Source: Pseudomonadota bacterium (GTDB lineage: Bacteria; Pseudomonadota; Alphaproteobacteria; UBA2136; JAPKEQ01). From it: a stretch of DNA of 64,000 bases. Position numbers and translations under genes: made by a program. The DNA lies in the NCBI GenBank assembly GCA_036141575.1, contig JAYZXF010000003.1:166598-230597 (forward strand), given 5' to 3'. Every line of letters starts with the position of its first letter. Within the stretch, counting starts at the first letter, position 1. Positions 470-55,632 of this stretch are shown here, piece after piece. The notes under the pieces were generated by a model. The model searched no databases and was not told the DNA's origin. It saw only the letters and a program-made list of their open reading frames with translations.

Positions 470-592
470 AATTCGCTGATAGGTTAGCGAAAATTCTTCT
501 GTAGGAAGAGTGCAGGACGATGTGTATAAAATATACATGAGGACGAACCCTGCACTACAGAAGAATTTGCAGCACCTAGCAGTAGAGTTTTA
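470..592. repeat. ~122-nt structured intergenic element, copy A; two hairpins and a conserved tail that ends in the popZ stop codon
   Basis: Shares ttcgct..agcgaaaat, gatgtgtatNNNatacatga, tttgcag and agtaga(a/g)tttta with the copies at 18135-18256 and 55511-55632. The terminal tta is the TAA stop of the upstream minus-strand gene. Confidence 0.6.
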
Positions 593-1477
593 TTTGTCAG
601 CGAGCTTTTCTAGCTCTTCCTTTACAAGACGCTCTACAATTTCTGGAAGGTTGTTCTGAATCCAACCTTTTACGAGAGGACGCAGTGCTTCAGCCAACAC
701 TTCCATTGGAAAACCAACTTGCAGACCTTCTGCACTTGGCAGAGCATTGAGATGCTTATACTGCGCAGCCGCAACTCCCGCACCTGCAGTAGCTCCTTTA
801 AAGGCAGCAAGCACAGCTTCATCAGAAATTTCTTCAGCACCAATATCATCTAGAACCTCAGACATATCTTCTTCAGCTTCTGCCGCCTTGTAAGATTCCT
901 GCGCTTCTTCTACATCACTTGTGTTTGCAGGCTTTGTTTCGCCTGTTTGTTCAAAGTGATCCACATCTACAAAGTCATCATCTGCACTTGATTCTTCAGA
1001 TCCAATCTCATCGACAAGATCAAGAACATCGTCTTCGCTAACACCAGAATCTGCGGAAGCAGCTTCTTCTACAGAAGTTTCGCTCATAAGACCATCCATG
1101 GCATCATCAGCAGGTGCGTCACCAGATGCCGCTGCAGCTACAGCAGCAGCTTCCTCGGCAATAGCATCATCTACGTCTTCATTTTCAGCAACAGGGTGCA
1201 TATCTTCTTCAAATGCAGCAGAAGTATCATCAGATGTACCACCATCAACCTCTGTTGCACTCATAAGACTTTCATCAATATCACCTTCAGGAATAGCAGG
1301 AGATGCATCTTCTTCAGGCGCATCTTCCTCAATTTGCTCAGCAAGCATTTCCTCGGCAAGCGCCTCAGGATCTAGATCATCATCTTCTCTAGTTGTCTCT
1401 TCTTCAACAGTTTCACGAATCGAAGACAGAATGTCCTCAATAGACTCATCCGTAGGTTCAACAGGGTTATTTGTCAT
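590..1477 (-). CDS. popZ: PopZ-like polar organizing protein (DUF2497), 295 aa
   Basis: N-terminal helix EPTDESIEDILSSIRETV resembles the PopZ EPTMEEILASIRRI motif, followed by a long acidic Asp/Glu/Ala linker. The conserved C-terminal block is ...FPMEVLAEALRPLVKGWIQNNLPEIVERLVKEELEKL. Adjacency to valS matches Caulobacter. Confidence 0.7.
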   Translation of the reverse strand: MTNNPVEPTDESIEDILSSIRETVEEETTREDDDLDPEALAEEMLAEQIEEDAPEEDASPAIPEGDIDESLMSATEVDGGTSDDTSAAFEEDMHPVAENEDVDDAIAEEAAAVAAAASGDAPADDAMDGLMSETSVEEAASADSGVSEDDVLDLVDEIGSEESSADDDFVDVDHFEQTGETKPANTSDVEEAQESYKAAEAEEDMSEVLDDIGAEEISDEAVLAAFKGATAGAGVAAAQYKHLNALPSAEGLQVGFPMEVLAEALRPLVKGWIQNNLPEIVERLVKEELEKLADK

Positions 1478-18052: not shown

Positions 18053-18083
18053 TTAAAAAAGCCCGCTATAGCGGGCTTTTTAT
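18053..18083 (+). terminator. Rho-independent terminator
   Basis: aaaaaagcccgcTATAgcgggcttttta. Confidence 0.7.
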
Positions 18084-18134
18084 ACATAATGAAATCTTTA
18101 AAGAATGTTTTTGCCACTTACCACTTCTTATCAA

Positions 18135-18256
18135 ATTCGCTGTGAGTCAGCGAAAATAACTTTTGAGCGAAGCGTACAAGCTGATGTGTATTGATAATAC
18201 ATGAAGCTAAGCACTGGAGTTCAAAATTATTTGCAGCCACTCACAGTAGAATTTTA
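18135..18256. repeat. ~122-nt structured element, copy B; ends in the lpdA TAA stop
   Basis: ttcgctgTGAGTcagcgaaaat hairpin, core gatgtgtattgataatacatga hairpin, tttgcag, agtagaatttta. Confidence 0.6.
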
Positions 18257-19657
18257 AGCGTTTAAAGCGCGTCCCATACTATCAAGTACAGATTCACCAA
18301 GCATCTCACTGAGAGTTGGGTGCGGCAAGCAAGCTGCCACAAACTCTTCTTCAGTCGTTTCAAGATGGCGACCAATCACAAATGTACTAATCATCTCTGT
18401 TGCTTCGGCACCAATAATGTGGGCCCCAAGAAGTTCACCTGTCTCCTCATCAAAGACAGTTTTTACAAGGCCTTCGCTCTCACCAATGGCAAGTGCTTTA
18501 CCATTTGCTTGGTAATTATAGCGGCCAACTTTAACCTTGTAGCCTTCTTCTTTGGCTTTTTCTTCTGTAAAGCCAACGCTACCAATTTGCGGTGTGCAAT
18601 ATGTACAGCCCGGAATGTTTGTGTAGTCCATTGTATGCACATGGTTCAAACCTGAAATATGTTCAGCAGCAATGACACCTTCATGAGATGCAACGTGCGC
18701 AAGCCAAGGCGCGCCAACAACATCACCAATTGCATAAATGCCGTTTTGCGTTGTGCGGTAGAATTCATCAACTGTAATGTCACCACGCTCATTCATACCC
18801 ACGCCAACATCCTCAAGGCCAAGGCCTTCACTGTTTGCCTGAACACCAATCGCAAGCAGGACTTTTTCAAATTTTTGTTTTTTAACACTACCCCTAATCT
18901 CTAGGGCAGCCTCTGCATCTTTCTTTGAAACCTTCAGAGATTTTGTCATTGTTTCAGTCAGAATTTCAATGCCCTGCTTCTTCAGAGATTTTTCTAGGCT
19001 CTTAGAAATTTCAGCATCTTCAGCTGGCGTAATGCGGTTTTGCGCTTCAACAATTGTTACCTTTGTACCAAACGCATTGTAGAAACTTGCAAACTCAACA
19101 CCAATGGCACCAGCACCAATCACAAGCAGGCTCTTTGGCAGCTTCTCAGGAACCATTGCCTCTTTCGCTGTCCAAACAGTATTGCCATCTGCCTCTAGCA
19201 CACCCGGAATCTGACGCGCACGCGCACCTGTTGCTACAATTGCGTTTGTGAAGGTCACGCTTGAAGTTTTGCCTTTTTTATCAGTCACATCCAGTGTGTT
19301 TTTAGATGAGAACTTAGCCGTTCCTTCAATCACTTCAATCTTATTTTTCTTCATCAGGAAACCAACACCACCAGATAGGCCACCTGCTACGTCACGGCTA
19401 CGGCTAATCAGTTTCTTCACATCTACATCAACACCTTTAACTTTAAAGCCAAAGTCACTTGCGTGAGACATTGCTGTGTAAAGCTCAGATGCTTTAAGAA
19501 GTGCTTTTGTTGGAATGCAACCCCAGTTTAGGCATACGCCACCAAGGTGCTCTTTTTCAACCACAGCTACACGTTTTCCAAGTTGCGACGCACGAATCGC
19601 AGCTGTGTAACCACCAGGGCCACCACCAACTACAACAACATCAAATTCTTTAGACAT
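18254..19657 (-). CDS. lpdA: Dihydrolipoyl dehydrogenase (E3)
   Basis: GGGPGGY FAD motif, redox-active CLNWGCIPTK, second Rossmann fold and interface domain HPTLSE. Length 467 aa. Confidence 0.9.
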   Translation of the reverse strand: MSKEFDVVVVGGGPGGYTAAIRASQLGKRVAVVEKEHLGGVCLNWGCIPTKALLKASELYTAMSHASDFGFKVKGVDVDVKKLISRSRDVAGGLSGGVGFLMKKNKIEVIEGTAKFSSKNTLDVTDKKGKTSSVTFTNAIVATGARARQIPGVLEADGNTVWTAKEAMVPEKLPKSLLVIGAGAIGVEFASFYNAFGTKVTIVEAQNRITPAEDAEISKSLEKSLKKQGIEILTETMTKSLKVSKKDAEAALEIRGSVKKQKFEKVLLAIGVQANSEGLGLEDVGVGMNERGDITVDEFYRTTQNGIYAIGDVVGAPWLAHVASHEGVIAAEHISGLNHVHTMDYTNIPGCTYCTPQIGSVGFTEEKAKEEGYKVKVGRYNYQANGKALAIGESEGLVKTVFDEETGELLGAHIIGAEATEMISTFVIGRHLETTEEEFVAACLPHPTLSEMLGESVLDSMGRALNA

Positions 19658-27209: not shown

Positions 27210-28682
27210 CTATCGTTCACTTAATGCGTTTTGACGCATCTTATTAAATGGTTTCATCATATAATTCCAAACGGTTTTCTTACCCGTTAAAATCTCAACT
27301 GTTGCCACCATACCTGGCATAATTGGGAGCGGCTTATCTTCTGTACCTAGATGGCCCTTATCTGTTCTCACCTGAATTTCATAAAACGGCTCACCTGTCT
27401 TTTCATCCTGCACCGTATCCGCTGCAATTTGAATTAGTTTTGCATCAAGGCTACCGTAAATAGAAGGGTCATATGCTGTAATCTTCACACGCGAATCTTG
27501 GTTCGGACGAAGGAAGGCTACATCCTGCGGACGAATACGCGCCTCAACCACCAAGTTCTCTTCAATCGGAACCACCTCAACAATGTCCACACCAGGCTGA
27601 ATCACCTGCCCTACAGTATTGACAAGCACACGCTTCACCGTACCATGCACAGGAGAGCGCACAGTTGTACGGTCTACCTGATCTTCTACAGCTTTTACGG
27701 CTTCCTGCAAACGAACAAGTTCATCTTTTTTCTCAGTCAGCTCTGTTAGAGACTCTGTACGGTTACGTGCAACCGCCTCTTCCACGCGCTGTTTCGCTTC
27801 TTTAACAGCCGCCTCTCCTCTTGGAACAGCAAGCTTAGCAGCTTCCATTTCACCACGAAGATCGTTCACCTGTCGCTTCAAACGCAGAATATCCACCTTA
27901 GATACAACGCCTTTAGCTTCTAAAGGAATTGTCATTTGCAGTTCTTCATTAGAAATTTGGTATGAACGACGAGACTGGCCTGCTTTTGTCTTTGCTTCAC
28001 GAAGCTCTTGTTCTTTTTGCTCAACCTGACGCGTTAGAATTTCAACAGCAGACTGAATCTCTTCTTTGCGAGAAAGATAAAGCGTATTTTCAGATTCAAT
28101 AATCTGTGGCGCCTCTTCTACAACTTCAGCAGGCCACTTAGGTTTCTCACCTTCAAGCTCAGCATTTAAACGTGCCACAGCCGCCATAAGTGTGTAAATA
28201 CGTGCGCGGCGCTCACCAAGCGTTGACGCAAACCCTGTGTCATCAATACGAATAAGAATATCGCCCTTTTGCACAATATCTCCATTCCCAACAAGAATCT
28301 CTTTAACAATACCACCCTCAAGGTTTTGTACTGTCTGTGTATCACCTGATGGAATCACCTTACCTTGGCCGCGCGTCACTTCATCAAGTTCTGCAAACAT
28401 CGCCCAAGCAATAAAGAAAACAAAAAATGCGACAATTGCCCAGAACAAACGGTTAGCAATGGGGTGCACACCACGCAGTGTCGCTTGACGCACATCATCC
28501 ATAAAGATGCCATCTTCCCAAGCTGCAGGGAAGAACCAGTTCAAGATACCGCGCCATGCCTTTTCAGGACGACCTGCAGGTTTAAGATCTCCGCCCAGCG
28601 TGCTGTTTTTTCTCTCTTTTCGAGAAAGCTTCTTTGGCTTATCGTCCTTCAAAGGTTCATCTGGTATGCGAGATGAGTACAT
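27210..28682 (-). CDS. lapC: Type I secretion membrane fusion protein (HlyD family)
   Basis: N-terminal TM, long coiled coils and a C-terminal beta-barrel/lipoyl-like HlyD domain. Length 490 aa. Confidence 0.9.
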   Translation of the reverse strand: MYSSRIPDEPLKDDKPKKLSRKERKNSTLGGDLKPAGRPEKAWRGILNWFFPAAWEDGIFMDDVRQATLRGVHPIANRLFWAIVAFFVFFIAWAMFAELDEVTRGQGKVIPSGDTQTVQNLEGGIVKEILVGNGDIVQKGDILIRIDDTGFASTLGERRARIYTLMAAVARLNAELEGEKPKWPAEVVEEAPQIIESENTLYLSRKEEIQSAVEILTRQVEQKEQELREAKTKAGQSRRSYQISNEELQMTIPLEAKGVVSKVDILRLKRQVNDLRGEMEAAKLAVPRGEAAVKEAKQRVEEAVARNRTESLTELTEKKDELVRLQEAVKAVEDQVDRTTVRSPVHGTVKRVLVNTVGQVIQPGVDIVEVVPIEENLVVEARIRPQDVAFLRPNQDSRVKITAYDPSIYGSLDAKLIQIAADTVQDEKTGEPFYEIQVRTDKGHLGTEDKPLPIMPGMVATVEILTGKKTVWNYMMKPFNKMRQNALSER

Positions 28683-28695
28683 TTGTTTTCTCTTC

Positions 28696-30897
28696 TTATT
28701 TCTTTAATGTCGTTTTGTTTTTACCAGACAGGCTCTTCAGCACGTCTTCTTTAGGCCCGTCCGCAAGAATACGACCATCTTCCATCACAATGACACGGTC
28801 CACAAGATCAAGCATTGTGTACTTGTGCGTCACAAGAACAACTGTCTTATCCTTAATCGCTTTCTTCAAATGGCCCAGAAGCTTCATTTCTGTACGGTTA
28901 TCCATTTCACTTGTTGGCTCATCAAGCAGAAGAATTGGAGGCTCTTTAAGAATTGCGCGCGCAAGAGAGACCGCCTGACGCTGACCACCAGACAAACTAT
29001 CACCACGTTCGCCCACTGGCATATCAAGGCCCATAGGGTGTTTGCTTGCAAATTCATTCACGCCACTCATTTCTACAGCGGCTTTCAGTTGCTCCTGAGT
29101 TGCATGCGGTGCGCTCAACATAATGTTATGGCGCAGCGTGCCACTAAATAGAATAATGTTTTGTGGCACGTAACCAATATTCTTACGTACTTCCACTGGG
29201 TCTACCTGACGAATCTCAAGATCATCAAACAGAATGCTCCCTTGCGTTGGGTTATAAAGGTTAAGCATCAGACGTAGGAGCGAACTCTTACCAGAACCTG
29301 TACGACCAATCACAGCCACCTTTTCACCCGGCTGAATCTTAAAGCTCATATCCTTCACACTCTCGAGTGGAGAGTTCGGGTAAACAAATGACACATCTTT
29401 AAACTCAACTTGGCCTGTTGCCTCGCCAAGGTAAACAAAGTTTTTACCATCTGGGCGTTCAACTTCCATATCCATAATGCCGTTCAATGTTTCAAGAGAC
29501 TGCATGGCTTGGTTATAGCGCGCATAAAGCGCAACAGCTTGGCTAAGTGGCGCCATTGTACGACCCGCAAGAAGTGTACAAGCCACAAGCGCACCCACAG
29601 ACATGTAACCGCCTTTAATCATAAACACACCAACAACCACAATACCGACTGTCACCATCTGCTGAATAAAGCCAGCAAAGTTTTGACCAATAGACGCAAG
29701 AAGACGCGTACGCTGACCAACACGAGCGACAGCACCAACTGATTGCTCCCAACGAGACTGCATCACACTCTGCATGTTCAGGCTTTTAATCGCTTCAAGG
29801 CCATTAATCGTCTCAACAAGGTGACCATGCTTTGCATCAAGGTCTTGCATCGCCTGTTGAATAATAGCCTTCATAGGAGACTGCACTGTAAAGCTTACAA
29901 ACAGAACAATTGGAATTGCAAATAAAGGAACTAGCGCGACCCAGCCACCAATAATGGCAATCACACCAATAAAGACAAAAATAAACGGTAGATCAATCAG
30001 CGTTGTGAGCGTTGCTGATGTAAAGAAATCTCTAAGAGATTCAAACTCACGCAGCTGGTTTGCAAAGGCACCACTTGATGAACCTTGCTTACCAAGACGA
30101 ATATTAAGAACTTGCTGATACAGTTGACCAGACAGTAAAATATCAGCCCCTCGCCCTGCTGTATCAATAAAGTAACCTCGCAGCACCTTTAATATAAAGT
30201 CAAACACGTAAGCTGTACCAATACCAAGCGCAAGAACAGTTAGTGTTTCCATTGCGTTGTTTGGTACCACGCGGTCATAAACGTTCATCACAAAGAGCGG
30301 TGAGACCACTGCAATTAAGTTAATCACCACAGCAGCAATGGCCACTTGGAAGTAAATCCAACGAAACTGCCAAAGCGTATCTCTAAACCAGCGTTCACCC
30401 GATCTAAATACGTCCGTCACAAAATCATGTACAGCTGTTGGGCGCGCCATAATCATTGTACCAGAGTACACAGGCGCAAAGTCTTCAAGGCTTGCAAAGC
30501 GCTTTTCTTCACCACTTACAGGGTTTACCAGTACAACACTACCGTGATCACCCATTTCTTTAAGCACAAACGCAGGGCCAACCTCGTCACCCTCACCCTT
30601 TAAGATCACAAGAGCTGGAAGCACATGACGTGAAAGCTCTTCAAGCTTTCTATCAATCACACGCGCGTTTAAACCAGCGCGCTTTGCAGCACGTACAAAC
30701 AAGAATGGCGTAAGCTTGTTATTTTGGAGAGGAAGTCCGACCGTGAGAGATTCCGCATTGAAAAGCTTATTATAATGCTTCACAAAATACATAAGTCCTG
30801 CCAGTAGATAATCTGGCGCTTGAACCTTTTCAGCTTCTTCTTGCTTCACATCAATAGAACCCAGAGCTTCTTGTTGCTCTAACGTAGCGTCTGTCAC
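28696..30897 (-). CDS. lapB: Type I secretion ABC transporter ATPase/permease with an N-terminal C39-like (Cys-less) domain
   Basis: The first ~150 aa have a peptidase-C39-like fold but no cysteine. Six-TM ABC domain, Walker A GRTGSGKSS, signature LSGGQRQ, Walker B ILLLDE. Length 733 aa. Confidence 0.9.
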   Translation of the reverse strand: MTDATLEQQEALGSIDVKQEEAEKVQAPDYLLAGLMYFVKHYNKLFNAESLTVGLPLQNNKLTPFLFVRAAKRAGLNARVIDRKLEELSRHVLPALVILKGEGDEVGPAFVLKEMGDHGSVVLVNPVSGEEKRFASLEDFAPVYSGTMIMARPTAVHDFVTDVFRSGERWFRDTLWQFRWIYFQVAIAAVVINLIAVVSPLFVMNVYDRVVPNNAMETLTVLALGIGTAYVFDFILKVLRGYFIDTAGRGADILLSGQLYQQVLNIRLGKQGSSSGAFANQLREFESLRDFFTSATLTTLIDLPFIFVFIGVIAIIGGWVALVPLFAIPIVLFVSFTVQSPMKAIIQQAMQDLDAKHGHLVETINGLEAIKSLNMQSVMQSRWEQSVGAVARVGQRTRLLASIGQNFAGFIQQMVTVGIVVVGVFMIKGGYMSVGALVACTLLAGRTMAPLSQAVALYARYNQAMQSLETLNGIMDMEVERPDGKNFVYLGEATGQVEFKDVSFVYPNSPLESVKDMSFKIQPGEKVAVIGRTGSGKSSLLRLMLNLYNPTQGSILFDDLEIRQVDPVEVRKNIGYVPQNIILFSGTLRHNIMLSAPHATQEQLKAAVEMSGVNEFASKHPMGLDMPVGERGDSLSGGQRQAVSLARAILKEPPILLLDEPTSEMDNRTEMKLLGHLKKAIKDKTVVLVTHKYTMLDLVDRVIVMEDGRILADGPKEDVLKSLSGKNKTTLKK

Positions 30898-31141: not shown

Positions 31142-32467
31142 ATGAAATTTACAGTTAAAGCAATGCTTGCAGGTGCTGGTCTTATGATCATGAGCCCTGC
31201 TGGCTACACTGAAACTCTTGGCCAAGCTGTCCAGCTGGCTCTACAAAACCACCCAGATATTAAAATTGCAAAAAACCAGAAGCACTCTATTGAGCACGAA
31301 TGGCGCATTGCTAAAGCTGGCTACCTGCCAAGCCTAGACGTAGCAGCAGGCTACGGTGTTGAACGCAGCGAGAACAACACAACACGTAACCGTGCAGGCC
31401 GAAACGGTACAAATGGTGATGCACACCGTACACTGAACCGTTACGAGTCAAGCGTAACAGCGAGCCAAATGCTTTTTGATGGTTACGAAACAAGCAGCGA
31501 AATCTGCCAACAGAAAGAACGCTTCAACTCTGCACGTTACAACGTAATGGAAGTTGAAGAGACTGTTTCTCTTGCTGCTGTTGAAGCATACATTGAAGTT
31601 CTTCGTAACATGGAGCTTGTTGCTATCTCTAAAGATAACTACAACACGCACCTACGTTACCTGAAACAAATTAAACAACGCGCTGAAGGTGGCCGCGGTA
31701 ACATGGCAGACGTTCGTCAGGCCGACGGTCGTGTAGCTCTTATCCGTGCAAACCTACAAGCAGCTGAAGGTGACCTTGCTAACGCGAAGGCAAACTACCT
31801 AGAAGTTGTTGGTAAACTACCAGAAGGCGTGAGCCTGCCAACTCCTCCAGTTGAGGTTCTACCATCTACTATTGATGATGCAATCGCTCGCGCTATTGCA
31901 AACAACCCAGCTCTTGGTAGTGCACAGCACGACATTAAAGCAGCTAAAGCAGCGAAACAAACTGCTAAAGCAAGCTTCTACCCTCGTTTTGATGCTGAAC
32001 TAGAAGCATCACACGATCACAACCTAAGCGGCCAAAGCGAAAAAGGGACTGACCGTAACTACCAAGCCATGGTACGTATGCGTTACAACCTTTACAGCGG
32101 TGGTGCTGACCGTGCCCGTGTACGTGAGCGCGCAAGCCGTGTTCAAGAAGCCCGTGAATCTCTAGAAAGAGATCGCCGTCTCGTTGAAGAAGGCATGTAT
32201 GTTGCTTGGAACAACCTAGAAACAGCAAGAACGCGTATCCAACCACTTAGTCAACACGTGATGGCATCTGATGCAACACGTAAGGCTTACAGTGAGCAGT
32301 TTGATATTGGTCAGCGTAGCTTGCTTGACCTTCTCGACTCTGAGATTGAGTTCTACGGTGCACGTAGCGCACTTGTAAACGCTAAATACGCACTTGATTT
32401 TGCAGTGTACAACGTACTTGCACAATCAGGTGAGCTTGCTAACACTGTTGGTGGGCACCGCTCTTAA
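31142..32467 (+). CDS. lapE: TolC-family outer membrane channel of the T1SS
   Basis: Signal peptide, two OEP repeat halves. Length 441 aa. Transcribed divergently from the ABC/MFP operon. Confidence 0.85.
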   Translation: MKFTVKAMLAGAGLMIMSPAGYTETLGQAVQLALQNHPDIKIAKNQKHSIEHEWRIAKAGYLPSLDVAAGYGVERSENNTTRNRAGRNGTNGDAHRTLNRYESSVTASQMLFDGYETSSEICQQKERFNSARYNVMEVEETVSLAAVEAYIEVLRNMELVAISKDNYNTHLRYLKQIKQRAEGGRGNMADVRQADGRVALIRANLQAAEGDLANAKANYLEVVGKLPEGVSLPTPPVEVLPSTIDDAIARAIANNPALGSAQHDIKAAKAAKQTAKASFYPRFDAELEASHDHNLSGQSEKGTDRNYQAMVRMRYNLYSGGADRARVRERASRVQEARESLERDRRLVEEGMYVAWNNLETARTRIQPLSQHVMASDATRKAYSEQFDIGQRSLLDLLDSEIEFYGARSALVNAKYALDFAVYNVLAQSGELANTVGGHRS

Positions 32468-32749: not shown

Positions 32750-35700
32750 ATGTCAACGACACAAAACCAAGAGAATCAAGCGCTTGAAACAACTGAAACA
32801 GGCACAAAGCTCTTTGCCGGACTACCTGAAGAACAGGCTGCTGCGCAGACGAAAAATGTTCTGACAGTTTCTGCTCCGAAAGGAAACTCTAGCGAAGCAT
32901 ACACTGTTGAACCAGGCGATGTCATTAAACTGACAGGTTTTAATCCATCTGATGCAACTTTCAAAGTTGACGGTAACAACCTGATCATCTCTGTAGAGGG
33001 GCAACCTGATATTTACCTTCTTGATTTTGCAAAGCTTCAAGGCACAGATGCTGGTAACACAACATTTATCGAACTTACTGAAGGCGCAACAGTTGATGCA
33101 AACAGCCTCCTTGCACAGTTGACGCCAGAAGCTACAAACGGCAACGGTACTCAAGTGGCAGCCTCAGATGAAAACATTAACGAGATTGAGCCGGCAGCCG
33201 GTCCAGCCGCTGGTGCTGCTGGTGGTGCAGGTTTCACCCCTCCTCCAGTTGCAAATGATTCTTTCTCTGCCAATACAGTTAACGCCGAAGTGATCGGCGA
33301 TTTCCTCGTTGATAGCGAGTTTGGCCAAGCTGATGAACGCCTACTAGAAACACCTAACCGTGCTCCAGATGCTGTGGATGACAACGGCGGTAACGCTGAA
33401 GGTGATGCACACACAGTTAAAGAAGATGCTGTACCAAACACAGTTTCAGGCAACGTACTTGCCAACGATACAGACCCAGATGGTGATACGCTGAGTGTAG
33501 CAAACCCAGGGACTTACACACTGAACTACGGTACACTTACAATTAACGTAGACGGTACGTACACATACGCCCTAGACAACAGCAACCCAACTGTAAACGC
33601 TCTAGATGATGGTGACACGCTCACAGATTCATTTACATACCGCGCAACAGATGGTCAGCTTCAGTCTCCAGCAAACCTAAACATTCGTATCCTAGGTACA
33701 AATGATGGTCCTGAGCTAAACAATGATGTAGACCCTAACGACAATAGTCTTTCTATTAAAGAAGATGCAGTACCAAACTTCACATCTGGTAACGTACTTG
33801 ATAACGACGTTGACCCAGATGGCGATGTGCTCACGGTTGTAAACCCAGGCACGTACACCCTGAACTACGGTACACTTGTGATTAATGCTGACGGTACATA
33901 CACGTACACACTCGATAACAGCAACCCAACTGTAGACGCCCTAGACAACGGCGATACACTATCAGATAGCTTCACATATGAAGCGACTGATGGCGACCTG
34001 AACGATACAGCGGTTCTAACAATCACAATTCACGGTACAAATGACGCTCCTGCTCTTCAAGATGACGTAAACAGCATTTTTGAAAACGCAACACCTGACA
34101 CAGTAACAGGTAACGTACTTGCGAACGATACAGATGTTGAAGGTGATGCAATCACTGTTTCAAACCCTGGTATCTATGTTCTTAACTACGGTACACTTAC
34201 ACTGAATGGTGACGGCTCATACTCATACCAGCTTGATAACAGCAACCCTACTGTGAACAACATGAAAGCTGGCGATAGCATTCAAGATGCCTTCATTTAC
34301 CGCGCTACTGATGGTAAGGATAGCTCAACAGCGAATCTAACAATCACAATTCACGGCACAAATGACGGCCCAGTTGCAAACGATGATGTTGCAGCAACAG
34401 ACGAAGATACGCCGATTACAATTCCAGCAAGCACAATCCTTGCGAACGACTACGAGCTTGAAGGTGACACATTTAACATTACTGCTGTGAATGTAAGGTT
34501 TGGTGGCGGTACAGCCGTACTGAACGCAGATGGTAGCGTAACATACACACCACTGCATAACTATAACGGCCCTGCTCAGTTGGAATATACAATTACAGAT
34601 ACTGATGGCCTATCGGATACTGCCGTGATTGATATCAATGTGATTTCAATTAACGATGTACCGCTAGCAGAAGATGACAGCGCTGTGACTCATGAAGATG
34701 TGCCTGTACGCATTTCTAACGCTGAAATTCTGCGTAATGACTCTGACCCTGAAGGTGACGCACTCACAATTACAACGGTTCGCGTTGTATCTGGTGGTGG
34801 TAGTGCTATTCTTCAACCCAACGGTGACGTGGTTTACACACCTGCGCTAAACTACAATGGCCCTGCGGTTCTTGAGTACGTAGTAACGGATGGAAACGGC
34901 GACTTTGATAGTGCCTTCATTAACATTGATGTCCTTCCTGTAAACGATGCAATTTCAGCACTTGATGACTACGCTGAAACACCAGAAGACACTCCGATCA
35001 CAATTCCTTCAGATAATATTCTTGCGAACGATTACGATCCTGAAGGTGACCCGCTTACAATTACAGCAGTGAGCGTTGTATCAGGCGGAGGTAGTGTTAC
35101 CCTTAACGCTGACGGCAGTGTAACGTACACGCCAGCGCCAAACTACAGCGGCCCTGCGGTTCTTGAGTACACAGTTGATGACGGCAATGGCAGTACAGAT
35201 ACTGCTTTGATCAACATCACAGTTACACCAGAGAATGATCCAGATGCAGTTGATGACTTCGCAACAACACGAGAAGACACAACAATTGTAATCCCGAATG
35301 CAACAATCCTTGCAAACGATGTGGATGATATGGGTCTTGCTCTTACAATTACAGAAGTACGCCTTGTAAGCGGCGGCGGTAGCGTAACGCTACTCGCAAA
35401 CGGTGATGTATCTTACACACCAGCGCCAAACTACAATGGCCCAGTTGTTCTTGAGTACACAATTCAAGATCCAAACGGTAACGAAGACAGTGCAAACATC
35501 TACATTGCAGTCACACCTGTGAACGACGGCCCTGTTGCTGTTGATGACTTTGCTGTGATGAATGAAGATTCTGTTCTTGTCATTCCAGAAGGCACCCTAC
35601 TGGCCAATGATACTGACCCAGAGGGCGACCCTCTTACAGTAACTCATGTCACTGTTGTAAGCGGTGGCGGCACAGCGACTGTAGATGCTTCAGGTAACGT

Positions 35701-38700
35701 AACATACGTACCAGCCCTCAACTACAACGGCCCTGTTGTTCTTGAATACACAATTAACGACGGCAACGGCGGTACTGATACTGCGCTTGTTAACATTGAC
35801 GTTCTGCCTGTAAACGATGCGCCAGTGGCAAACGATGACGCTGCAGCAACAGATGAAGACACGCCAATCACGATTTCAAACGCTGATATCCTATCAAATG
35901 ACTTTGATGTAGATGGCGATGTGATCACAATTACTGGCGTACGCATGGTAACAGGCCAAGGTACAGCGGTACTCAACGCAGACGGTAGCGTAACTTACAC
36001 GCCTACTGCCAATTACCACGGCCCTGCTGAAATTGAGTACACAATTGAAGATGAGCACGGTGCAACGGATACAGCAATTATCCGCGTAACAGTAAGATCT
36101 GTAAATGATGGTCCACAGGCAAACGATGATGCCTTCACAACGCCAGAAGATACAGCAATTACAATGACATCTGCTCAGATCCTATCAAACGATACGGACC
36201 CTGAAGGCGATCCTCTATCAATCACAAGCGTGATTGTAGTAAGCGGTGGCGGTACAGCGGTACTGAATGCTGATGGTAGCGTAACGTACACACCAGCGGC
36301 TGACTACAACGGCCCTGCGGTTCTTGAGTACGTTATGACTGATGGCACAGCTTCTGATAGTGCCTTCATCAACATTAACGTAACGCCTGTTAATGATGCG
36401 CCTGATGCAAACGATGATAGCTTCACAACTGCTGAAGATACTGCACTGACAATTCCAGCTGCAAACATCCTTGCAAACGACACAGACCCAGATGGTGACA
36501 CACTCACAATTACTGGCGTAAGCGTTCTTTCAGGTGGTGGTACAGCGGTACTAAACGCTGATGGTAGCGTAACTTACACGCCAGCAGCTGATTACCACGG
36601 CCCTGCGGTTCTTGAGTACAGCATCTCTGATGGTAACGGTGGTACAGATACAGCACGTATCAATATCACAGTAACGCCTGAGAACGACCCTGATGCAGTT
36701 GATGACTTCACTAGCACTAATGAAGACACAACTGTAATCATCCCGAACGCAACAATCCTTGCGAACGATGTGGATGACATGGGCATGACACTCACAATTA
36801 CCAATGTACGCGTTGTAAGCGGCGGCGGTACAGTACAGCTCCTAGCAAACGGTGATGTATCTTACACCCCTGCTCAAGGTTACAACGGCTCAGCAACGCT
36901 TGAGTACACAATCACAGACCCGGATGGCAACACTGATAGTGCAAACATCTTTGTGGCAATCAACCCTGTGAACGATGGCCCAACAGCTGTAAACGACGTA
37001 GCAGTCATGAACGAAGACACTGTTCTTGTGATTCCTGAAGGCACACTGCTTGCTAATGACAGTGACCCTGACGGTGACCCACTGAACGTAACAGGTGTAA
37101 CTGTTGTAAGCGGTGGCGGTACAGCAACAATTGATTCTGCAGGTAACGTAACGTACGTACCAGCCCTCAACTACAACGGTCCAGTTGTCCTTGAGTACAG
37201 CATCTCTGATGGTAACGGCGGTACAGATACGGCGCTTGTCAACATTACTGTAAACCCAGTCAATGATGATCCAAACGCTCGTAACGATAACTACACAACT
37301 GCCGAAGACACATCTGTTGGCCTAGACCTTCTAGCGAACGATACAGATGTAGATGGTGACACACTAACAATTACACACATTGCTGGTGTAGCCCTAACAG
37401 GTGGCGCTCAGTCAATTGATGTAGGTAACGGTCGCGTAGAAATTGCTGCAAACGGTTCTATGCGCTTCCACCCTGATGCAAACTGGAACGGTACTGAAAC
37501 ATTCAACTACCAAGTTTCAGATGGTAACGGTGGTACAGACACTGCAACAGTTCGTGTAAACGTAGACGCTCGTAACGATGGCCCTGATGCCCGTAACGAT
37601 AACTACACAACAAACGAAGATACGTCAGTGAACCTGAACCTTCTGGCAAACGATACTGACCCAGATGGCGATACGCTCACAATTACACATATTGATGGTG
37701 TAGCCCTAACAGGTAACGCGCAAACAATTGATGTGGGTAACGGTCGCGTAATCATTGCGTCTAACGGCACAATGCGCTTCCAACCGGATGCCAGCTGGAA
37801 TGGAACTGAGGCCTTCAGCTACCAGATCTCTGATGGCAACGGTGGCAGCGATACTGCAACTGTACGTGTAACAGTGAGAGCTGTAAACGACGGTCCAGAT
37901 GCTCGCAACGATAACTACACAACAGATGAAGATGTCTCAGTGAACCTGAACCTTCTGGCAAATGATACTGACCCTGAAGGCGACACACTCCGCATCACGC
38001 ACATTGATGGCACAGCCCTAACAGGTAATGCACAAACAATTGATGTGGGTAATGGCCGTGTCATTATCTCATCAACAGGTGCTATGCGCTTTGAGCCAGA
38101 TGCTAACTGGAATGGTATTGAAACATTCAACTACACAATTACAGACGGTAATGGTGGCACAGACACTGCCCGCGTAACTGTTGAAGTATGTGCAGTAAAC
38201 GACGGCCCAGATGCTCGCAACGATAACTACACAACAGATGAAGACACTGCGGTGAATATCAATCTGCTTGCGAACGACACAGATATCGATGGCGATACAC
38301 TCCGCATCACACATATTGCTGGCACAGCCCTAACTGGCGGCGCACAAACAATTGATGTGGGTAACGGTCGTGTCATTATCTCGTCAACGGGTGCTATGCG
38401 CTTCCAACCGGATAACGGCTGGTTTGGTACTGAAACATTCAACTACCGCATTACAGATGGTAACGGTGGCTCTGATACAGCAACAGTAAGAGTTGTTGTA
38501 CGCGAAGGCAACAACGGCCCTGATGCGAAGAATGATAGCTACACAACAAACGAAGATACGTCAGTAAACCTGAACCTTCTAGCGAATGATACTGACCCTG
38601 ACGGCGATACGCTTCGTATCACTCATATTGAAGGTGTAAGACTCACAGGCAGTGCACAAACAATTGATGTGGGTAACGGTCGTGTCATCATTACTTCTGC

Positions 38701-40243
38701 TGGTGCTATGCGCTTCCAGCCTGATGCAAACTGGAATGGTACTGAAACATTTAGCTACCGAATCTCTGATGGTAATGGGGGTGTAGACTCTGCACGCGTA
38801 ACTATTAATGTTAAACCAGTAAACGATGGCCCTGATGCGAAGAATGATAGCTTCACAATCAATGAAGACCAAACCCTTTACCTCAACGGTGGATCAAAGC
38901 TTCTTGCGAATGACCGTGATATTGATGGTGATAGTCTAAATATTACGCACATCAACGGTGTAAGACTGACTGGCGGCAACCAAAACATTGATGTAGGACG
39001 CGGTACAGTGGTTGTTGGCAGTGATGGCAGCATGCAGTTCCGTCCAGATCGTAACTGGAACGGCACAGAGACATTCACTTACAGAATCTCTGATGGCAAC
39101 GGCGGCAGTGATACAGCAACTGTAACAGTCAAAGTAAGACCAGTAAATGATGGTCCGAACGCACGTAACGACTCTGTATCTGTAAACGAGAACCAGTCTA
39201 TTGCGATTAGCGTTCTAAACAACGATACAGACCCTGATGGCGATGCATTACACATCACACGTATTGTAAGTGGTCCAAACTTTGGTAGCGCTTACGTATC
39301 AGGCGGACGTATCATTTACACAGCAGGCTCTGTAACATCAGATCGCACGGTTACTTTCAGATATGAAATCTCTGATGGTCACGGTGGTACTGATATTGCA
39401 ACCGTAACAGTAAACGTACGTAACACTTGGAACCCTGGCGGTGACGGCGGCGGTGACGGCGGCGGTGATTGCCCACTTATCATTGACCTAGACGGTGACG
39501 GCCTTGAGCTTATCGCTCTAGAAGACTCAAACGCTATGTTTGATGTTGATGGTGACGGACAAGCAGAGCACACAGCATGGGCTTCATCTGATGATGGTAT
39601 CCTTGCGATGGACTGGAACGGTGACGGCATCATTAATGATGTAACTGAAGTCTTTGGTAACAGCCTACAAGACGGTTTCACTGAGCTTATTGAGCTTGAT
39701 GACAACGGTGATGGCGTCATTAACCAAGATGACAGCCTGTTCTCTAGCCTACAAGTATGGCAGGACTACAACGGTGACGGTATCTCTGATGCTGGTGAGC
39801 TGAGCAGCCTTGCTGACCACGGTATCACGTCACTTGGTGCAGTTGGCAATGAAAACCCAATGGTGATCAACGGCCAAACAATTACGCACACAAGTAGTGT
39901 TGAGTACGCTGATGGAACATCACGTGACATCTACAGTGTATGGTTCCAGAACGAGAACACAAGTTCAAGTGACCATAACTACGATGAGATTGACCTTACA
40001 GGTGACTCTCTAGTTGGCTTCAGCGTATCACTTGACGATGTTCTGAGTACGGCTTCAAACACGCTTGTGATCTCTGGTGATGATGGTGATGCGGTGACAA
40101 CAACTGAGTTCACTGAACGTAACGATAACGTAACGATTGGTGACCAGACATACGCGTCATTCACAGACAGCAACCACACAGGAACAATCCTGATTGAGCT
40201 TGGCCTGACTGTAAACGGCGAGACAATGACAGACGTTGTTTAA
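32750..40243 (+). CDS. lapA: Giant LapA-like type I secreted repeat adhesin, 2497 aa
   Basis: Strong gaggagg RBS. N-terminal beta-rich region followed by the EPAAGPAAGAAGGAG tract. More than 20 tandem ~100-aa VCBS/cadherin-like repeats (..ANDTDPDGD.L....V..G.....DG.V.YTP..NYNGP....Y...DG.G..D.A...I.V.PVND.P). C-terminal Asp/Gly-rich Ca-binding region (GGDGGGDGGGD, DLDGDG, DVDGDG, DDNGDG) and a non-cleaved C-terminal secretion signal. Confidence 0.85.
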   Translation: MSTTQNQENQALETTETGTKLFAGLPEEQAAAQTKNVLTVSAPKGNSSEAYTVEPGDVIKLTGFNPSDATFKVDGNNLIISVEGQPDIYLLDFAKLQGTDAGNTTFIELTEGATVDANSLLAQLTPEATNGNGTQVAASDENINEIEPAAGPAAGAAGGAGFTPPPVANDSFSANTVNAEVIGDFLVDSEFGQADERLLETPNRAPDAVDDNGGNAEGDAHTVKEDAVPNTVSGNVLANDTDPDGDTLSVANPGTYTLNYGTLTINVDGTYTYALDNSNPTVNALDDGDTLTDSFTYRATDGQLQSPANLNIRILGTNDGPELNNDVDPNDNSLSIKEDAVPNFTSGNVLDNDVDPDGDVLTVVNPGTYTLNYGTLVINADGTYTYTLDNSNPTVDALDNGDTLSDSFTYEATDGDLNDTAVLTITIHGTNDAPALQDDVNSIFENATPDTVTGNVLANDTDVEGDAITVSNPGIYVLNYGTLTLNGDGSYSYQLDNSNPTVNNMKAGDSIQDAFIYRATDGKDSSTANLTITIHGTNDGPVANDDVAATDEDTPITIPASTILANDYELEGDTFNITAVNVRFGGGTAVLNADGSVTYTPLHNYNGPAQLEYTITDTDGLSDTAVIDINVISINDVPLAEDDSAVTHEDVPVRISNAEILRNDSDPEGDALTITTVRVVSGGGSAILQPNGDVVYTPALNYNGPAVLEYVVTDGNGDFDSAFINIDVLPVNDAISALDDYAETPEDTPITIPSDNILANDYDPEGDPLTITAVSVVSGGGSVTLNADGSVTYTPAPNYSGPAVLEYTVDDGNGSTDTALINITVTPENDPDAVDDFATTREDTTIVIPNATILANDVDDMGLALTITEVRLVSGGGSVTLLANGDVSYTPAPNYNGPVVLEYTIQDPNGNEDSANIYIAVTPVNDGPVAVDDFAVMNEDSVLVIPEGTLLANDTDPEGDPLTVTHVTVVSGGGTATVDASGNVTYVPALNYNGPVVLEYTINDGNGGTDTALVNIDVLPVNDAPVANDDAAATDEDTPITISNADILSNDFDVDGDVITITGVRMVTGQGTAVLNADGSVTYTPTANYHGPAEIEYTIEDEHGATDTAIIRVTVRSVNDGPQANDDAFTTPEDTAITMTSAQILSNDTDPEGDPLSITSVIVVSGGGTAVLNADGSVTYTPAADYNGPAVLEYVMTDGTASDSAFININVTPVNDAPDANDDSFTTAEDTALTIPAANILANDTDPDGDTLTITGVSVLSGGGTAVLNADGSVTYTPAADYHGPAVLEYSISDGNGGTDTARINITVTPENDPDAVDDFTSTNEDTTVIIPNATILANDVDDMGMTLTITNVRVVSGGGTVQLLANGDVSYTPAQGYNGSATLEYTITDPDGNTDSANIFVAINPVNDGPTAVNDVAVMNEDTVLVIPEGTLLANDSDPDGDPLNVTGVTVVSGGGTATIDSAGNVTYVPALNYNGPVVLEYSISDGNGGTDTALVNITVNPVNDDPNARNDNYTTAEDTSVGLDLLANDTDVDGDTLTITHIAGVALTGGAQSIDVGNGRVEIAANGSMRFHPDANWNGTETFNYQVSDGNGGTDTATVRVNVDARNDGPDARNDNYTTNEDTSVNLNLLANDTDPDGDTLTITHIDGVALTGNAQTIDVGNGRVIIASNGTMRFQPDASWNGTEAFSYQISDGNGGSDTATVRVTVRAVNDGPDARNDNYTTDEDVSVNLNLLANDTDPEGDTLRITHIDGTALTGNAQTIDVGNGRVIISSTGAMRFEPDANWNGIETFNYTITDGNGGTDTARVTVEVCAVNDGPDARNDNYTTDEDTAVNINLLANDTDIDGDTLRITHIAGTALTGGAQTIDVGNGRVIISSTGAMRFQPDNGWFGTETFNYRITDGNGGSDTATVRVVVREGNNGPDAKNDSYTTNEDTSVNLNLLANDTDPDGDTLRITHIEGVRLTGSAQTIDVGNGRVIITSAGAMRFQPDANWNGTETFSYRISDGNGGVDSARVTINVKPVNDGPDAKNDSFTINEDQTLYLNGGSKLLANDRDIDGDSLNITHINGVRLTGGNQNIDVGRGTVVVGSDGSMQFRPDRNWNGTETFTYRISDGNGGSDTATVTVKVRPVNDGPNARNDSVSVNENQSIAISVLNNDTDPDGDALHITRIVSGPNFGSAYVSGGRIIYTAGSVTSDRTVTFRYEISDGHGGTDIATVTVNVRNTWNPGGDGGGDGGGDCPLIIDLDGDGLELIALEDSNAMFDVDGDGQAEHTAWASSDDGILAMDWNGDGIINDVTEVFGNSLQDGFTELIELDDNGDGVINQDDSLFSSLQVWQDYNGDGISDAGELSSLADHGITSLGAVGNENPMVINGQTITHTSSVEYADGTSRDIYSVWFQNENTSSSDHNYDEIDLTGDSLVGFSVSLDDVLSTASNTLVISGDDGDAVTTTEFTERNDNVTIGDQTYASFTDSNHTGTILIELGLTVNGETMTDVV

Positions 40244-41389: not shown

Positions 41390-41407
41390 ACTAATCGACA
41401 AACTGAA

Positions 41408-41435
41408 AGAAGCCCCTTAACGGGGCTTCTTTTGT
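41408..41435 (+). terminator. Rho-independent terminator
   Basis: gaagccccTTAAcggggcttcttttg. Confidence 0.65.
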
Positions 41436-41576
41436 ATTTGTAATAGATTAAACTATAAAGGTTAATCCAGCATTAGCGAAAATGAATAGATTATGAGAAC
41501 CTGAGCGCAGTGTACTTATGGGTACATGAGCACAGGAAGCGCAATAAGCTAACATTTGCAGCAGAGCTGGGTTGAC

Positions 41577-42761
41577 CTACACAAGTTCAACAGCCATAGC
41601 AACAGCTTCACCACCACCAATACATAACGCAGCAATTCCGCGCTTTTTACCAGCAGCTTTTAGAGCATGCACAAGTGTTGTGAGAATACGCGCACCAGAA
41701 GCACCAATTGGGTGCCCAAGGGCCACAGCACCACCGTTGACATTTACCCTGTCATGCGGGATGCCTATTTCCTTCATAGCTGCCATAGTCACAACAGAAA
41801 ACGCCTCATTAATTTCAAACAAATCAAAATCTTTCACAGACATATTAAGGCTGGACATTAACTTCTGCATTGCCTGTACTGGTGCAGTTGTAAACCACTC
41901 AGGTTCATGGGCATGAGAGCTATATCCAAGCACTTTTGCCACTGGCTTCAGGCCATACTTTTCAAGGCCTTCAGAAGCACAAAGAACCGCCACTGCAGCA
42001 CCATCAGAGATTGAGCTGGCGTTTGCAGCGGTCACCGTACCATCTTTGTTAAAAGCAGGTCTCAGGCTTGGTATTTTTTCAGGCATTGCTTTGCTTGGCG
42101 CCTCATCTGTATCAACCACAGTGTCGCCCTTGCGGCCTTTAACTGTAACAGGAGCAATTTCCGCCTTAAATGCGCCGCCTTCAATAGCTTTTTTAGCACG
42201 ACTTAGAGATTCAAGCGCAAATGCATCTTGGTCTTCTCGTGTAAATTGATATTTTTCTGCTGTTTTATCAGCAAAGTGGCCCATAAGCGTACCTTCACTG
42301 TAAGCATCTGTTAGGCCATCAAGCATCATACTATCAATAACCTGTCCATGGCCCATACGCATACCACTACGCGCTTTAGGAAGCAGATACGGTGCATTTG
42401 TCATGCTTTCCATACCACCCGCAACAATTACATCACCGCGGCCAGCTTTGAGCGTGTCACAAGCCGTCATAAGAGCTTGAAGACCACTCCCACACATTTT
42501 ATTAAGCGTTGTACATGGCGTTGCTTGTGCAATACCTGCTCCAAGAGCAGCTTGGCGTGCAGGTGCTTGGCCTTGACCAGCCATAAGAACATTCCCCATA
42601 AACACCTCATCCACAGACTCTGGAGATACACCGCCTTTTTCAAGCGCAGCTTCAATTGCAACCGCACCAAGCTCTGCTGCAGTTACAGTGCTAAATGCGC
42701 CTTGCATACTGCCCATTGGCGTTCTGGCTGTACTTACAATGTAGATATCTGAAGTTGTCAT
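41577..42761 (-). CDS. Acetyl-CoA C-acetyltransferase (thiolase II, PhaA-like)
   Basis: Active-site Cys in LNKMCGSGLQA, C-terminal NVNGGAVALGHPIGASGAR and CIGGGEAVA. Length 394 aa. Confidence 0.9.
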   Translation of the reverse strand: MTTSDIYIVSTARTPMGSMQGAFSTVTAAELGAVAIEAALEKGGVSPESVDEVFMGNVLMAGQGQAPARQAALGAGIAQATPCTTLNKMCGSGLQALMTACDTLKAGRGDVIVAGGMESMTNAPYLLPKARSGMRMGHGQVIDSMMLDGLTDAYSEGTLMGHFADKTAEKYQFTREDQDAFALESLSRAKKAIEGGAFKAEIAPVTVKGRKGDTVVDTDEAPSKAMPEKIPSLRPAFNKDGTVTAANASSISDGAAVAVLCASEGLEKYGLKPVAKVLGYSSHAHEPEWFTTAPVQAMQKLMSSLNMSVKDFDLFEINEAFSVVTMAAMKEIGIPHDRVNVNGGAVALGHPIGASGARILTTLVHALKAAGKKRGIAALCIGGGEAVAMAVELV

Positions 42762-55035: not shown

Positions 55036-55290
55036 TTACATCTCGCTGAGAACATCTTTAAAAGAATCGTTAGCACGAATCTCCTGAAGAGTCTGAGGCG
55101 CATTGCCATAATAACGGCGCGGATTTCCACACATCCAGCAGCTGCAGATGGTGGCATTATTGGCCAGAATTGCAATATCACGATCCGTCAACTCACGACG
55201 AGCTTCAGGGTGAACAGCATTCTCACGGCGAAGCGCCTTAGCTTTATATTTAGCCGTATTATGGCGACGTTCAGCACGAGTACGGGGCAT
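55036..55290 (-). CDS. Hypothetical small basic protein, 84 aa, with a CSCWMC motif
   Basis: ORF only. No family recognised. Confidence 0.35.
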   Translation of the reverse strand: MPRTRAERRHNTAKYKAKALRRENAVHPEARRELTDRDIAILANNATICSCWMCGNPRRYYGNAPQTLQEIRANDSFKDVLSEM

Positions 55291-55510
55291 AGCATTATCC
55301 TTTCAGATAAACGCTAGCAGGCATAAGGGCTATCCCCTATGCCCTAGCGTTGGCTATGCCAACGGGCTTTATGCTTAGGCATAAGCTCTCCTTTTGAAGA
55401 TTGAAGAAACAGTAAGATAGAATTGAATACAGTTTTATAGCAAGAATAGCTTAATCAGGCAAGAGAACCATTAAACTTGCTCAGCTATCTTGGAAAAATT
55501 TAAGTATAAA

Positions 55511-55632
55511 GTTCGCTCTACAGCCATCGAAAATGTGTTGGCATAAAGTGCGCAGAGCGATGTGTATTAAAGATACATGAGCACGAGCACTGCCATGCAA
55601 ATACATTTGCAGATCTGTAGAGTAGAATTTTA
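55511..55632. repeat. ~122-nt structured element, copy C; ends in the ETF-QO TAA stop
   Basis: ttcgct..tcgaaaat, core gatgtgtattaaagatacatga, tttgcag, agtagaatttta. Confidence 0.6.

Follow-up and report, generated by a model that had tools for sequence, protein, structure and literature searches.

The 64-kb stretch of DNA analysed here, which we call the window, carries a structured repeat whose copies stand directly at the stop codons of unrelated genes. The question raised by the first of these copies is what kind of element occupies such a position, an RNA that acts in the host or an element that moves. The earlier note on this DNA, which described three copies of about 122 nt, had proposed a functional RNA such as a 3'UTR small RNA or stability element, or alternatively a target-specific MITE.

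The coordinates given for those three copies proved to be right, and the sequence blocks that they share are real. A covariance-model search was run with a five-copy model, and a fourth copy was detected by it, so that the window contains copies at 466-592, 18130-18256 and 55506-55632 and a divergent one at 41460-41578. These copies, and the genes and terminators beside them, are as follows.

466 to 592, + strand: copy A, a full-length hairpin; covariance-model score 134 bits.
590 to 1477, minus strand: open reading frame of DUF2497/PopZ type (Pfam DUF2497 is the PopZ C-terminal family), with copy A at its stop.
18056 to 18081, bidirectional: intrinsic terminator downstream of lpdA.
18130 to 18256, + strand: copy B, inserted between the lpdA stop and that terminator; 117 bits.
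18254 to 19657, minus strand: open reading frame of LpdA type, that is, a dihydrolipoyl dehydrogenase-type flavoprotein, with copy B at its stop.
41404 to 41434, bidirectional: intrinsic terminator, with copy F between it and the thiolase stop codon.
41460 to 41578 (model match 41460 to 41576), + strand: copy F, of a divergent subfamily; 38.8 bits with model R1 and 77 bits with model R2.
41577 to 42761, minus strand: thiolase gene with a TAG stop, where copy F lies.
55506 to 55632, + strand: copy C, 3' of the ETF-QO stop, with an orthologue in the ANT-120 lineage and an empty site in a third lineage.
55630 to 57264, minus strand: ETF-QO open reading frame, with copy C at its stop.

Exactly three occurrences of the motif GATGTGTAT-N5-ATACATGA were counted over the window, where 0.31 would be expected. 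When one genome per species was scanned for the exact motif, two extra copies were found, both in alphaproteobacterial MAGs. One of them, copy D (L003, isolate ANT-120), has its 3' end on the TAA of a convergent ornithine aminotransferase gene. The other, copy E (L004, GFS_8951), lies in sense orientation between the co-directional genes hslO and queH and has no contact with a stop codon. A seventh, divergent locus, G (L050, 5096-5198, minus strand; 33.7 bits with model R2), adjoins the TAA of trxA in another MAG, between this stop and the terminator. Related copies are carried by three further metagenome lineages of Alphaproteobacteria. In length the elements measure 100-127 nt, and they have no coding capacity; a 6-codon mini-ORF (MCIxxT) in the apical hairpin was rejected as a coincidence, because it lacks a consistent ribosome-binding site and is missing from copy F.

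The wider searches were negative within their scope. The exact two-block motif gave 24 matches in JGI metagenomes, all by chance, and none of them had the other blocks. A motif independent of the apical hairpin gave two chance matches in IMG/VR, neither with a covariance-model score, and a plasmid BLAST search using copy A gave zero matches. Both large collection scans required exact motifs, and the ANT-120 copy of C would have escaped them. From the lineages concerned, about 0.3 Mb of sequence was searched, and 1.7 kb of DNA past the window edge was gained through PopZ. At the gathering threshold, Rfam 15 yielded no family matches over the whole window; around copy A, by E-value, it yielded sub-threshold noise only. 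There are precedents in kind among the REP and REPIN elements, which are considered below.

RNA folding indicated that each copy is a single long hairpin in which the 5' end is paired with the 3' end, not a string of small hairpins. The minimum free energies on the + strand were -48.4, -41.3 and -48.8 kcal/mol for copies A, B and C, respectively, with z-scores of -4.9 to -7.1. The conserved parts of the hairpin, in the coordinates of copy A, are as follows.

472 to 477, + strand: 5' block TTCGCT, whose pairing partner is AGTAGA at 581-586, with a bulged A and an invariant G.U in the stem.
487 to 494, + strand: GCGAAAAT block, forming an asymmetric internal loop with ATTTGCAG at 565-572.
519 to 540, + strand: apical hairpin GATGTGTAT-N5-ATACATGA, with a conserved tandem U.G/G.U.
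565 to 586, + strand: conserved 3' blocks ATTTGCAG-N8-AGTAGA.

The helices between these motifs vary strongly in sequence from copy to copy, and the pairing is kept. RNAalifold on five copies gave 46 pairs, 23 of them with compensatory changes. In nine sequences from six loci, 90.9% of the cells were paired and both sides had changed in 27 of the 46 pairs; this was reached in 0 of 500 shuffles, and slid controls were 30-50% paired. The covariation reported earlier is thus real and strong. The structure assigned to it has to be revised in part. The local 5' hairpin proposed before shows zero compensatory change and every variation disrupts it. TTCGCT pairs instead with AGTAGA, and the pairs between these two blocks (9/124 to 12/120) show no variation. 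The core hairpin is real and conserved, but it is the tip of the one long hairpin and not a separate structure.

The internal loop, whose conserved strands are GCGAAAAU / AUUUGCAG, is invariant in six loci including F and is missing at the divergent locus G, and the tip GGTAC(A/T)TGAGCA is common to G and F. Copies A-E and a 40-nt mini-element (described below) have the ends AAATTCGCT... and ...AGT(A)GAATTT in common, the family ends being also written as AAATTCGCT.../...AGTAGAATTT. The termini of F and G are unrelated to these. Copy F has a different terminal stem, GGTTAATCCAGC/GCTGGGTTGACC, of 12 bp with two U.G pairs; it retains the GCGAAAAT / ATTTGCAG loop, and its apical hairpin, GTGTAC/GTACA, covaries.

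The two strands do not fold equally well. In the consensus pairs, G.U combinations outnumber A.C by 33 to 3, which marks the + strand of the family as the constrained one. The + and - strands gave -48.4 and -39.5 kcal/mol for copy A, -41.3 and -35.0 for B, -48.8 and -34.6 for C, and -44.4 and -33.7 for F. That is, the energy of the + strand was lower at all loci, by 6-15 kcal/mol in seven intact copies and by 1.5 kcal/mol in C', the decayed orthologue of C. A mutational strand bias was rejected as the cause of the G.U excess: deamination of the sense or leading strand would, judging from GC skew, produce the opposite asymmetry. The asymmetry therefore reflects a constraint on the + strand. At the six stop-codon loci this folded strand is antisense to the adjoining gene, so that the mRNA carries the weaker complement.

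We then consider the position of the hairpin. At six of the seven full-length loci (A, B, C, D, F and G) a convergent gene has its stop codon in contact with the hairpin base or overlapped by it, and the orientation is identical at all six. The genes at these loci are unrelated, encoding PopZ-type, LpdA, ETF-QO, thiolase, ornithine aminotransferase and thioredoxin proteins. It had been claimed that the terminal TTA is a minus-strand stop codon next to the popZ-type, lpdA and ETF-QO genes, and this is right for all three copies. In copy A pairing ends with base 591, and the DUF2497/PopZ-type gene has its TAA stop in the TTA at 590-592. The end TTA of copy B, at 18254-18256, is the TAA stop of lpdA, and TTA at 55630-55632 in copy C is that of ETF-QO. 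In copy F the hairpin base overlaps CTA at 41577-41579, the TAG stop of thiolase. The count of copies that abut stops, which had been suggested as a check, thus came to four of four in the window and six of seven full-length loci overall. Under uniform intergenic placement, 1.75% per copy would adjoin a convergent stop, and four of four would occur with a probability of about 1e-7.

Matches to Pfam domains, and for LpdA the C-terminal sequence as well, extend to a few residues from the protein ends, which indicates that the abutting proteins are not truncated. All seven loci lie outside ORFs, and rocD alone was changed, by one or two residues, its C-terminus having passed from ..AA-stop to ..V-stop.

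Syntenic loci of related lineages were fetched via homologues of ETF-QO, isocitrate dehydrogenase and the aminotransferase. In a third lineage (Logan SRR275409xx; 82-87% protein identity), the sites after ETF-QO, lpdA, popZ and rocD are empty. The gene order and the stop are intact there, and the DNA that matches the far flank of the element follows directly after the stop. At the empty lpdA site of this sister lineage, the stop codon and the terminator are 16 nt apart. The trxA site is filled in L050 only and empty in L048 and L040. Thus a dispersed set of seven loci and one mini-element is accompanied by empty sites at ETF-QO, lpdA, popZ, rocD and trxA. The ANT-120 lineage (ETF-QO identity 85%) carries an orthologous copy of C, and orthologous copies of D occur in relatives of ANT-120.

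At the C locus, the empty site reads ..cttaaatTA/catttc and the occupied site ..tttaagtaTA/AAGTTCG...GAATTT/TA/catttc, so that what stands beside the stop in the former agrees with the 5' flank of the latter. From this comparison it follows that insertion took place at the TA of the stop codon and that the stop was rebuilt from the A/T-rich end of the element. TA is found at both sides of A (466-467 and 591-592) and of C (55507-55508 and 55631-55632). Counting C together with its orthologue C', TA flanks on both sides are present in three to four of eight insertions, namely A, C, the mini-element and, roughly, F. The flanks of B are TC/TA and those of D are CA/TA, and E and G have no TA duplication. 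A 3-bp repeat of TAA/TAG alternatively fits B, D' (L040/L044), the mini-element and perhaps F, and E and G show neither. The 5' flanks of the folded strand vary (ATA, ATC, ATA, CTA, TCA/TAG, GTG and GAA); the sole constant is the 3' junction, (T/C)TA.

The mini-element, a 40-nt hairpin (L003, 2330-2374, minus strand), has the family ends (AAATTCGCT.../...AGTGAATTT), is flanked by TA at either side, stands 25 nt before the start codon of an MFS transporter and is missing in L048 and L050. It looks like an internal-deletion derivative that was still able to move.

The divergence of the copies informs us about the purpose of the constraint. Paralogues are 42-72% identical and differ by 8-15 compensated pairs, with one or two broken pairs among the window copies A-C and five to nine in more divergent comparisons. 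Orthologues are 88-92% identical and have zero compensated pairs. The covariation lies between paralogues and not between orthologues, which argues for a constraint on propagation rather than on a function in the host, and judged from sequence this contrast is the signature that a mobile element would leave if its spread needed the hairpin. In the comparison of C with C' (L031, 11633-11758, minus strand; the ANT-120 orthologue), four of the six stem substitutions break pairs, which is about the neutral ratio; the terminal stem of C' is degraded, and its energy is -32.7 kcal/mol versus -48.8 kcal/mol for C. The change rate between the two was 6.5% in paired columns versus 23% in unpaired columns, and the lower rate in stems could reflect some purifying selection in place. 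The divergence among A, B and C is far greater than could have built up after the split from the empty-site lineage, so the copies came from source lineages that were already divergent and had kept the fold. Near-identical pairs of copies at different loci were not seen within about 0.3 Mb.

Taken comprehensively, these results make it reasonably probable that the family, which occurs in one clade of uncultured Alphaproteobacteria, is a mobile palindromic element, non-autonomous and of the MITE/REPIN type. The suggestion of a target-specific MITE is supported: four loci have clean empty counterparts, a short derivative has retained the termini and the TA flanks, and orthologous copies decay in place. 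We propose that each new copy enters at the TA of a TAA or TAG stop, as a rule within the short spacer that separates the stop from the intrinsic terminator of the gene, and that the A/T-rich terminus of the element would rebuild the stop codon, so that the protein stays unchanged or is altered by one or two residues. The hairpin may be the substrate of the mobilising enzyme. Given that the constraint acts on a single strand and that the orientation does not vary, propagation probably passes through a single-stranded intermediate, as in IS200/IS605 or REP-RAYT, and not through classical double-strand cut-and-paste. The flanks of A, C and the mini-element would agree with a TA duplication of the IS630/Correia/RUP type. 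Neither the window nor the flanking sequence that was fetched (about 0.3 Mb) contains a transposase, a RAYT or an integrase. The unrelated termini of F and G speak against the mobile-element reading, being odd if terminal inverted repeats are recognised.

Among known elements, REPs are reported to be located mostly 3' of genes, to contain many G-T pairs and to have termini that can provide an adjacent ORF with its stop codon (PMC3733652). In REPIN hairpins compensatory changes are common, and two imperfectly inverted halves carry conserved blocks with a variable, compensating stem between them (PMC3116915). Like them, the family consists of non-coding hairpins, about 100 nt in length, that are mostly situated 3' of genes where the neighbouring ORFs are co-directional or convergent, and the REPIN feature of two inverted units forming a long hairpin with compensatory changes is present in it. 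Each REP unit ends with a tetranucleotide tag, GTAG or CGTC. In the family, GTAG is invariant within AGTAGA in the 3' arm of A-E; it is, however, subterminal and confined to one arm, the 5' arm having TTCGCT (complement AGCGAA) instead, and F and G have no GTAG. The family differs further from REPINs in that it conserves internal loops together with an apical hairpin where REPINs have two identical 16-mers; its copies, at 42-72% identity, form no tight sequence cloud within a genome; and no RAYT gene was seen for it in the window or in about 0.3 Mb. Its zero-distance, one-orientation association with stop codons is also much tighter than reported for REPs.

Bacterial MITEs with a TA target, such as Correia/NEMIS, RUP and ERIC or those of the IS630 type, are 100-160 bp long, with terminal inverted repeats and TA junctions; they are intergenic and co-transcribed, and have shorter deletion variants (PMC2229807). 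The size, the whole-element 5'/3' hairpin, the TA junctions, the intergenic position, the co-transcription with neighbours and the internal-deletion variant of the present family agree with this description. Its length is also well within the 300 bp by which bacterial MITEs are defined. In contrast, its one-strand folding constraint and its fixed orientation (6/6) are predicted by no double-strand cut-and-paste, and its termini are not the best conserved part, as F and G differ there. A cognate autonomous IS with the same ends, which a MITE should have, was not seen in about 0.3 Mb of fetched sequence. We know of no IS630-type parent element for the family.

The Rickettsia palindromic elements (RPE) insert in frame inside ORFs and are translated. 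The family is like them in being alphaproteobacterial, 100-150 nt long, palindromic, old and divergent, but it lies outside ORFs and starts with a stop codon on the gene strand. Elements of the IS200/IS605 type (PATE-like) insert 3' of a fixed tetra- or pentanucleotide abutting the left end, without duplication. Such a fixed 5' target was rejected for the family, since its 5' flanks differ among loci and only the 3' junction is constant. The likeness that does exist, a hairpin constrained on one strand only, shows a strand constraint and not an enzyme. The stop-codon precision and the fixed orientation of the family are tighter than in any element that we found described.

Fixed orientation, one-strand constraint and the conservation of internal motifs are jointly predicted by neither the known MITE models nor the known REP models. 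All of this would be explained, including the conservation of internal motifs over termini, by a hairpin of single-stranded DNA or RNA that homes to stop codons, in one orientation and exactly at TAA or TAG, through an enzyme or a guide mechanism of a sort so far undescribed among bacterial repeats, or else by an expressed antisense RNA module on the + strand whose conserved loops are read by a host protein. We regard this as unlikely.

The proposal of a host cis-acting element in the 3'UTR is close to what had first been suggested. According to it, the hairpin after the stop, transcribed as a part of the mRNA, would shield this mRNA against 3' exonucleases, or else would adjust expression by stalling ribosomes at termination, in the manner of REP sequences that lie within 15 nt of a stop codon. 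Five of the seven loci (A, B, D, F and G) stand between the stop codon and the intrinsic terminator of the gene and are certainly co-transcribed, and the minus-strand complement folds at -34 to -39 kcal/mol. According to work quoted in PMC12306157, translation is down-regulated by REPs that lie less than 16 nt from a stop codon. The stems also changed less than the loops between C and C'. Nevertheless, the strand that bears the G.U pairs and has the lower energy is not the one in the mRNA, and this antisense position argues against an RNA function in the 3'UTR. The abutted genes have no common pathway, all four genes that could be compared are without the element in the sister lineage, the loss of pairs in resident copies is close to the neutral ratio, and copy E adjoins no stop codon. 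The claim of a functional 3'UTR small RNA or stability element is thus not supported as it stands, given the antisense position of the constrained strand and the lack of sigma-70-type promoters before the window copies on that strand, and we consider a 3'UTR element quite unlikely.

Two related candidates were rejected. The idea that a weaker mRNA hairpin spares the terminating ribosome and so determines the orientation fits copy A, but in B and C the pairing begins at the stop codon itself. The copies were also considered as intrinsic terminators; D, E, F and G have no U tract, and canonical separate terminators follow B, D, F and G. On the minus strand, a terminator-like local hairpin with a tail occurs in copy A only, and the + strand matches at A and B face no gene.

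An independently transcribed structured small RNA on the + strand, convergent with the 3' end of the gene and perhaps binding a common protein via its conserved loops, would agree with the strand that is constrained and with the invariance of some G.U pairs. With DNA parameters the strand asymmetry is smaller, and the fold is clearer under RNA parameters: for copy E the z-score was -3.05 as RNA, -0.5 as DNA (not significant) and -0.44 for the RNA of the complement, meaning that this copy has an RNA fold on the family strand only. Copy E is, moreover, in sense orientation between co-directional genes. Against this proposal, the scan for sigma-70-type promoters gave none immediately before any of the copies in the window, and its single match, about 85 nt upstream of copy C, is no more than shuffles give; a promoter within the element (TTGCAG, TAGAAT) was rejected for its wrong spacing. 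Copy F lies only about 25 nt from the terminator of the upstream gene, a terminator-like 3' end is missing in D, E and F, no Rfam family matches, and the copies show presence/absence polymorphism and decay in place. Such small RNAs are therefore, in our opinion, improbable.

A single-strand recombination site for a tyrosine recombinase, like the attC of integrons, is very improbable: the family does resemble attC in its 100-127 nt, in a strand-specific folded imperfect palindrome whose structure is kept while the stems vary, in a conserved extrahelical base, and in a folded strand that is antisense to the ORF and overlaps the stop codon, as is frequent in attC, but the gene-strand ends (TAAAA(C/T)TCTACT... 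and ...CAGCGAATTT) have the R''/R' core sites (RYYYAAC / GTTRRRY) on neither strand, and the copies are single, in no arrays, with no integrase in the window, and stand beside syntenic housekeeping genes that are in place when the element is absent and are not cassettes.

With the mobile palindromic element that we favour, a clade of uncultured Alphaproteobacteria about which little is known contributes a repeat family that is well defined and under structural constraint. If its landing precision reflects the insertion mechanism and not selection, the family would be a tractable system for the study of target choice by single-strand hairpins. When closely related MAG lineages are compared, its copies mark recent changes of the genome well. 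The family also gives annotators a warning, that is, a repeated hairpin may covary strongly without being a host RNA gene.

Some other features of the window are recorded here. A search for other long hairpins directly past stop codons in the window found nothing beyond terminators of the ordinary kind and one 5'UTR with several hairpins. At 300-400, between copy A and the start of the truncated valS gene, there is a hairpin GCCGATT...AATCAGGC-TTTTTTT, which is conserved in the lineage without copy A and is probably the original popZ terminator. A hairpin-rich leader at 55290-55400 (minus strand) lies upstream of the ORF at 55036..55290, which encodes a basic, Cys-containing protein of 84 aa; three lineages have this leader conserved, in contrast to the remainder of the spacer, and Rfam gave sub-threshold noise only. 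The 39 large ORFs, in DNA of 45% G+C, end with TAA in 30 cases, TAG in 8 and TGA in 1. TGA is thus nearly unused as a stop, and ORFs are unbroken by in-frame TGA; weak or lost use of RF2 could account for the near-absence of TGA stops. Finally, a type I secretion set, next to two giant cadherin/RTX-repeat proteins, occupies 27210-52514.

27210 to 28682: HlyD, type I secretion set.
28696 to 30897: C39-ABC exporter, type I secretion set.
31142 to 32467: TolC-like OEP, type I secretion set.
32750 to 40243 (2497 aa) and 43422 to 52514 (3030 aa): cadherin/RTX-repeat proteins.
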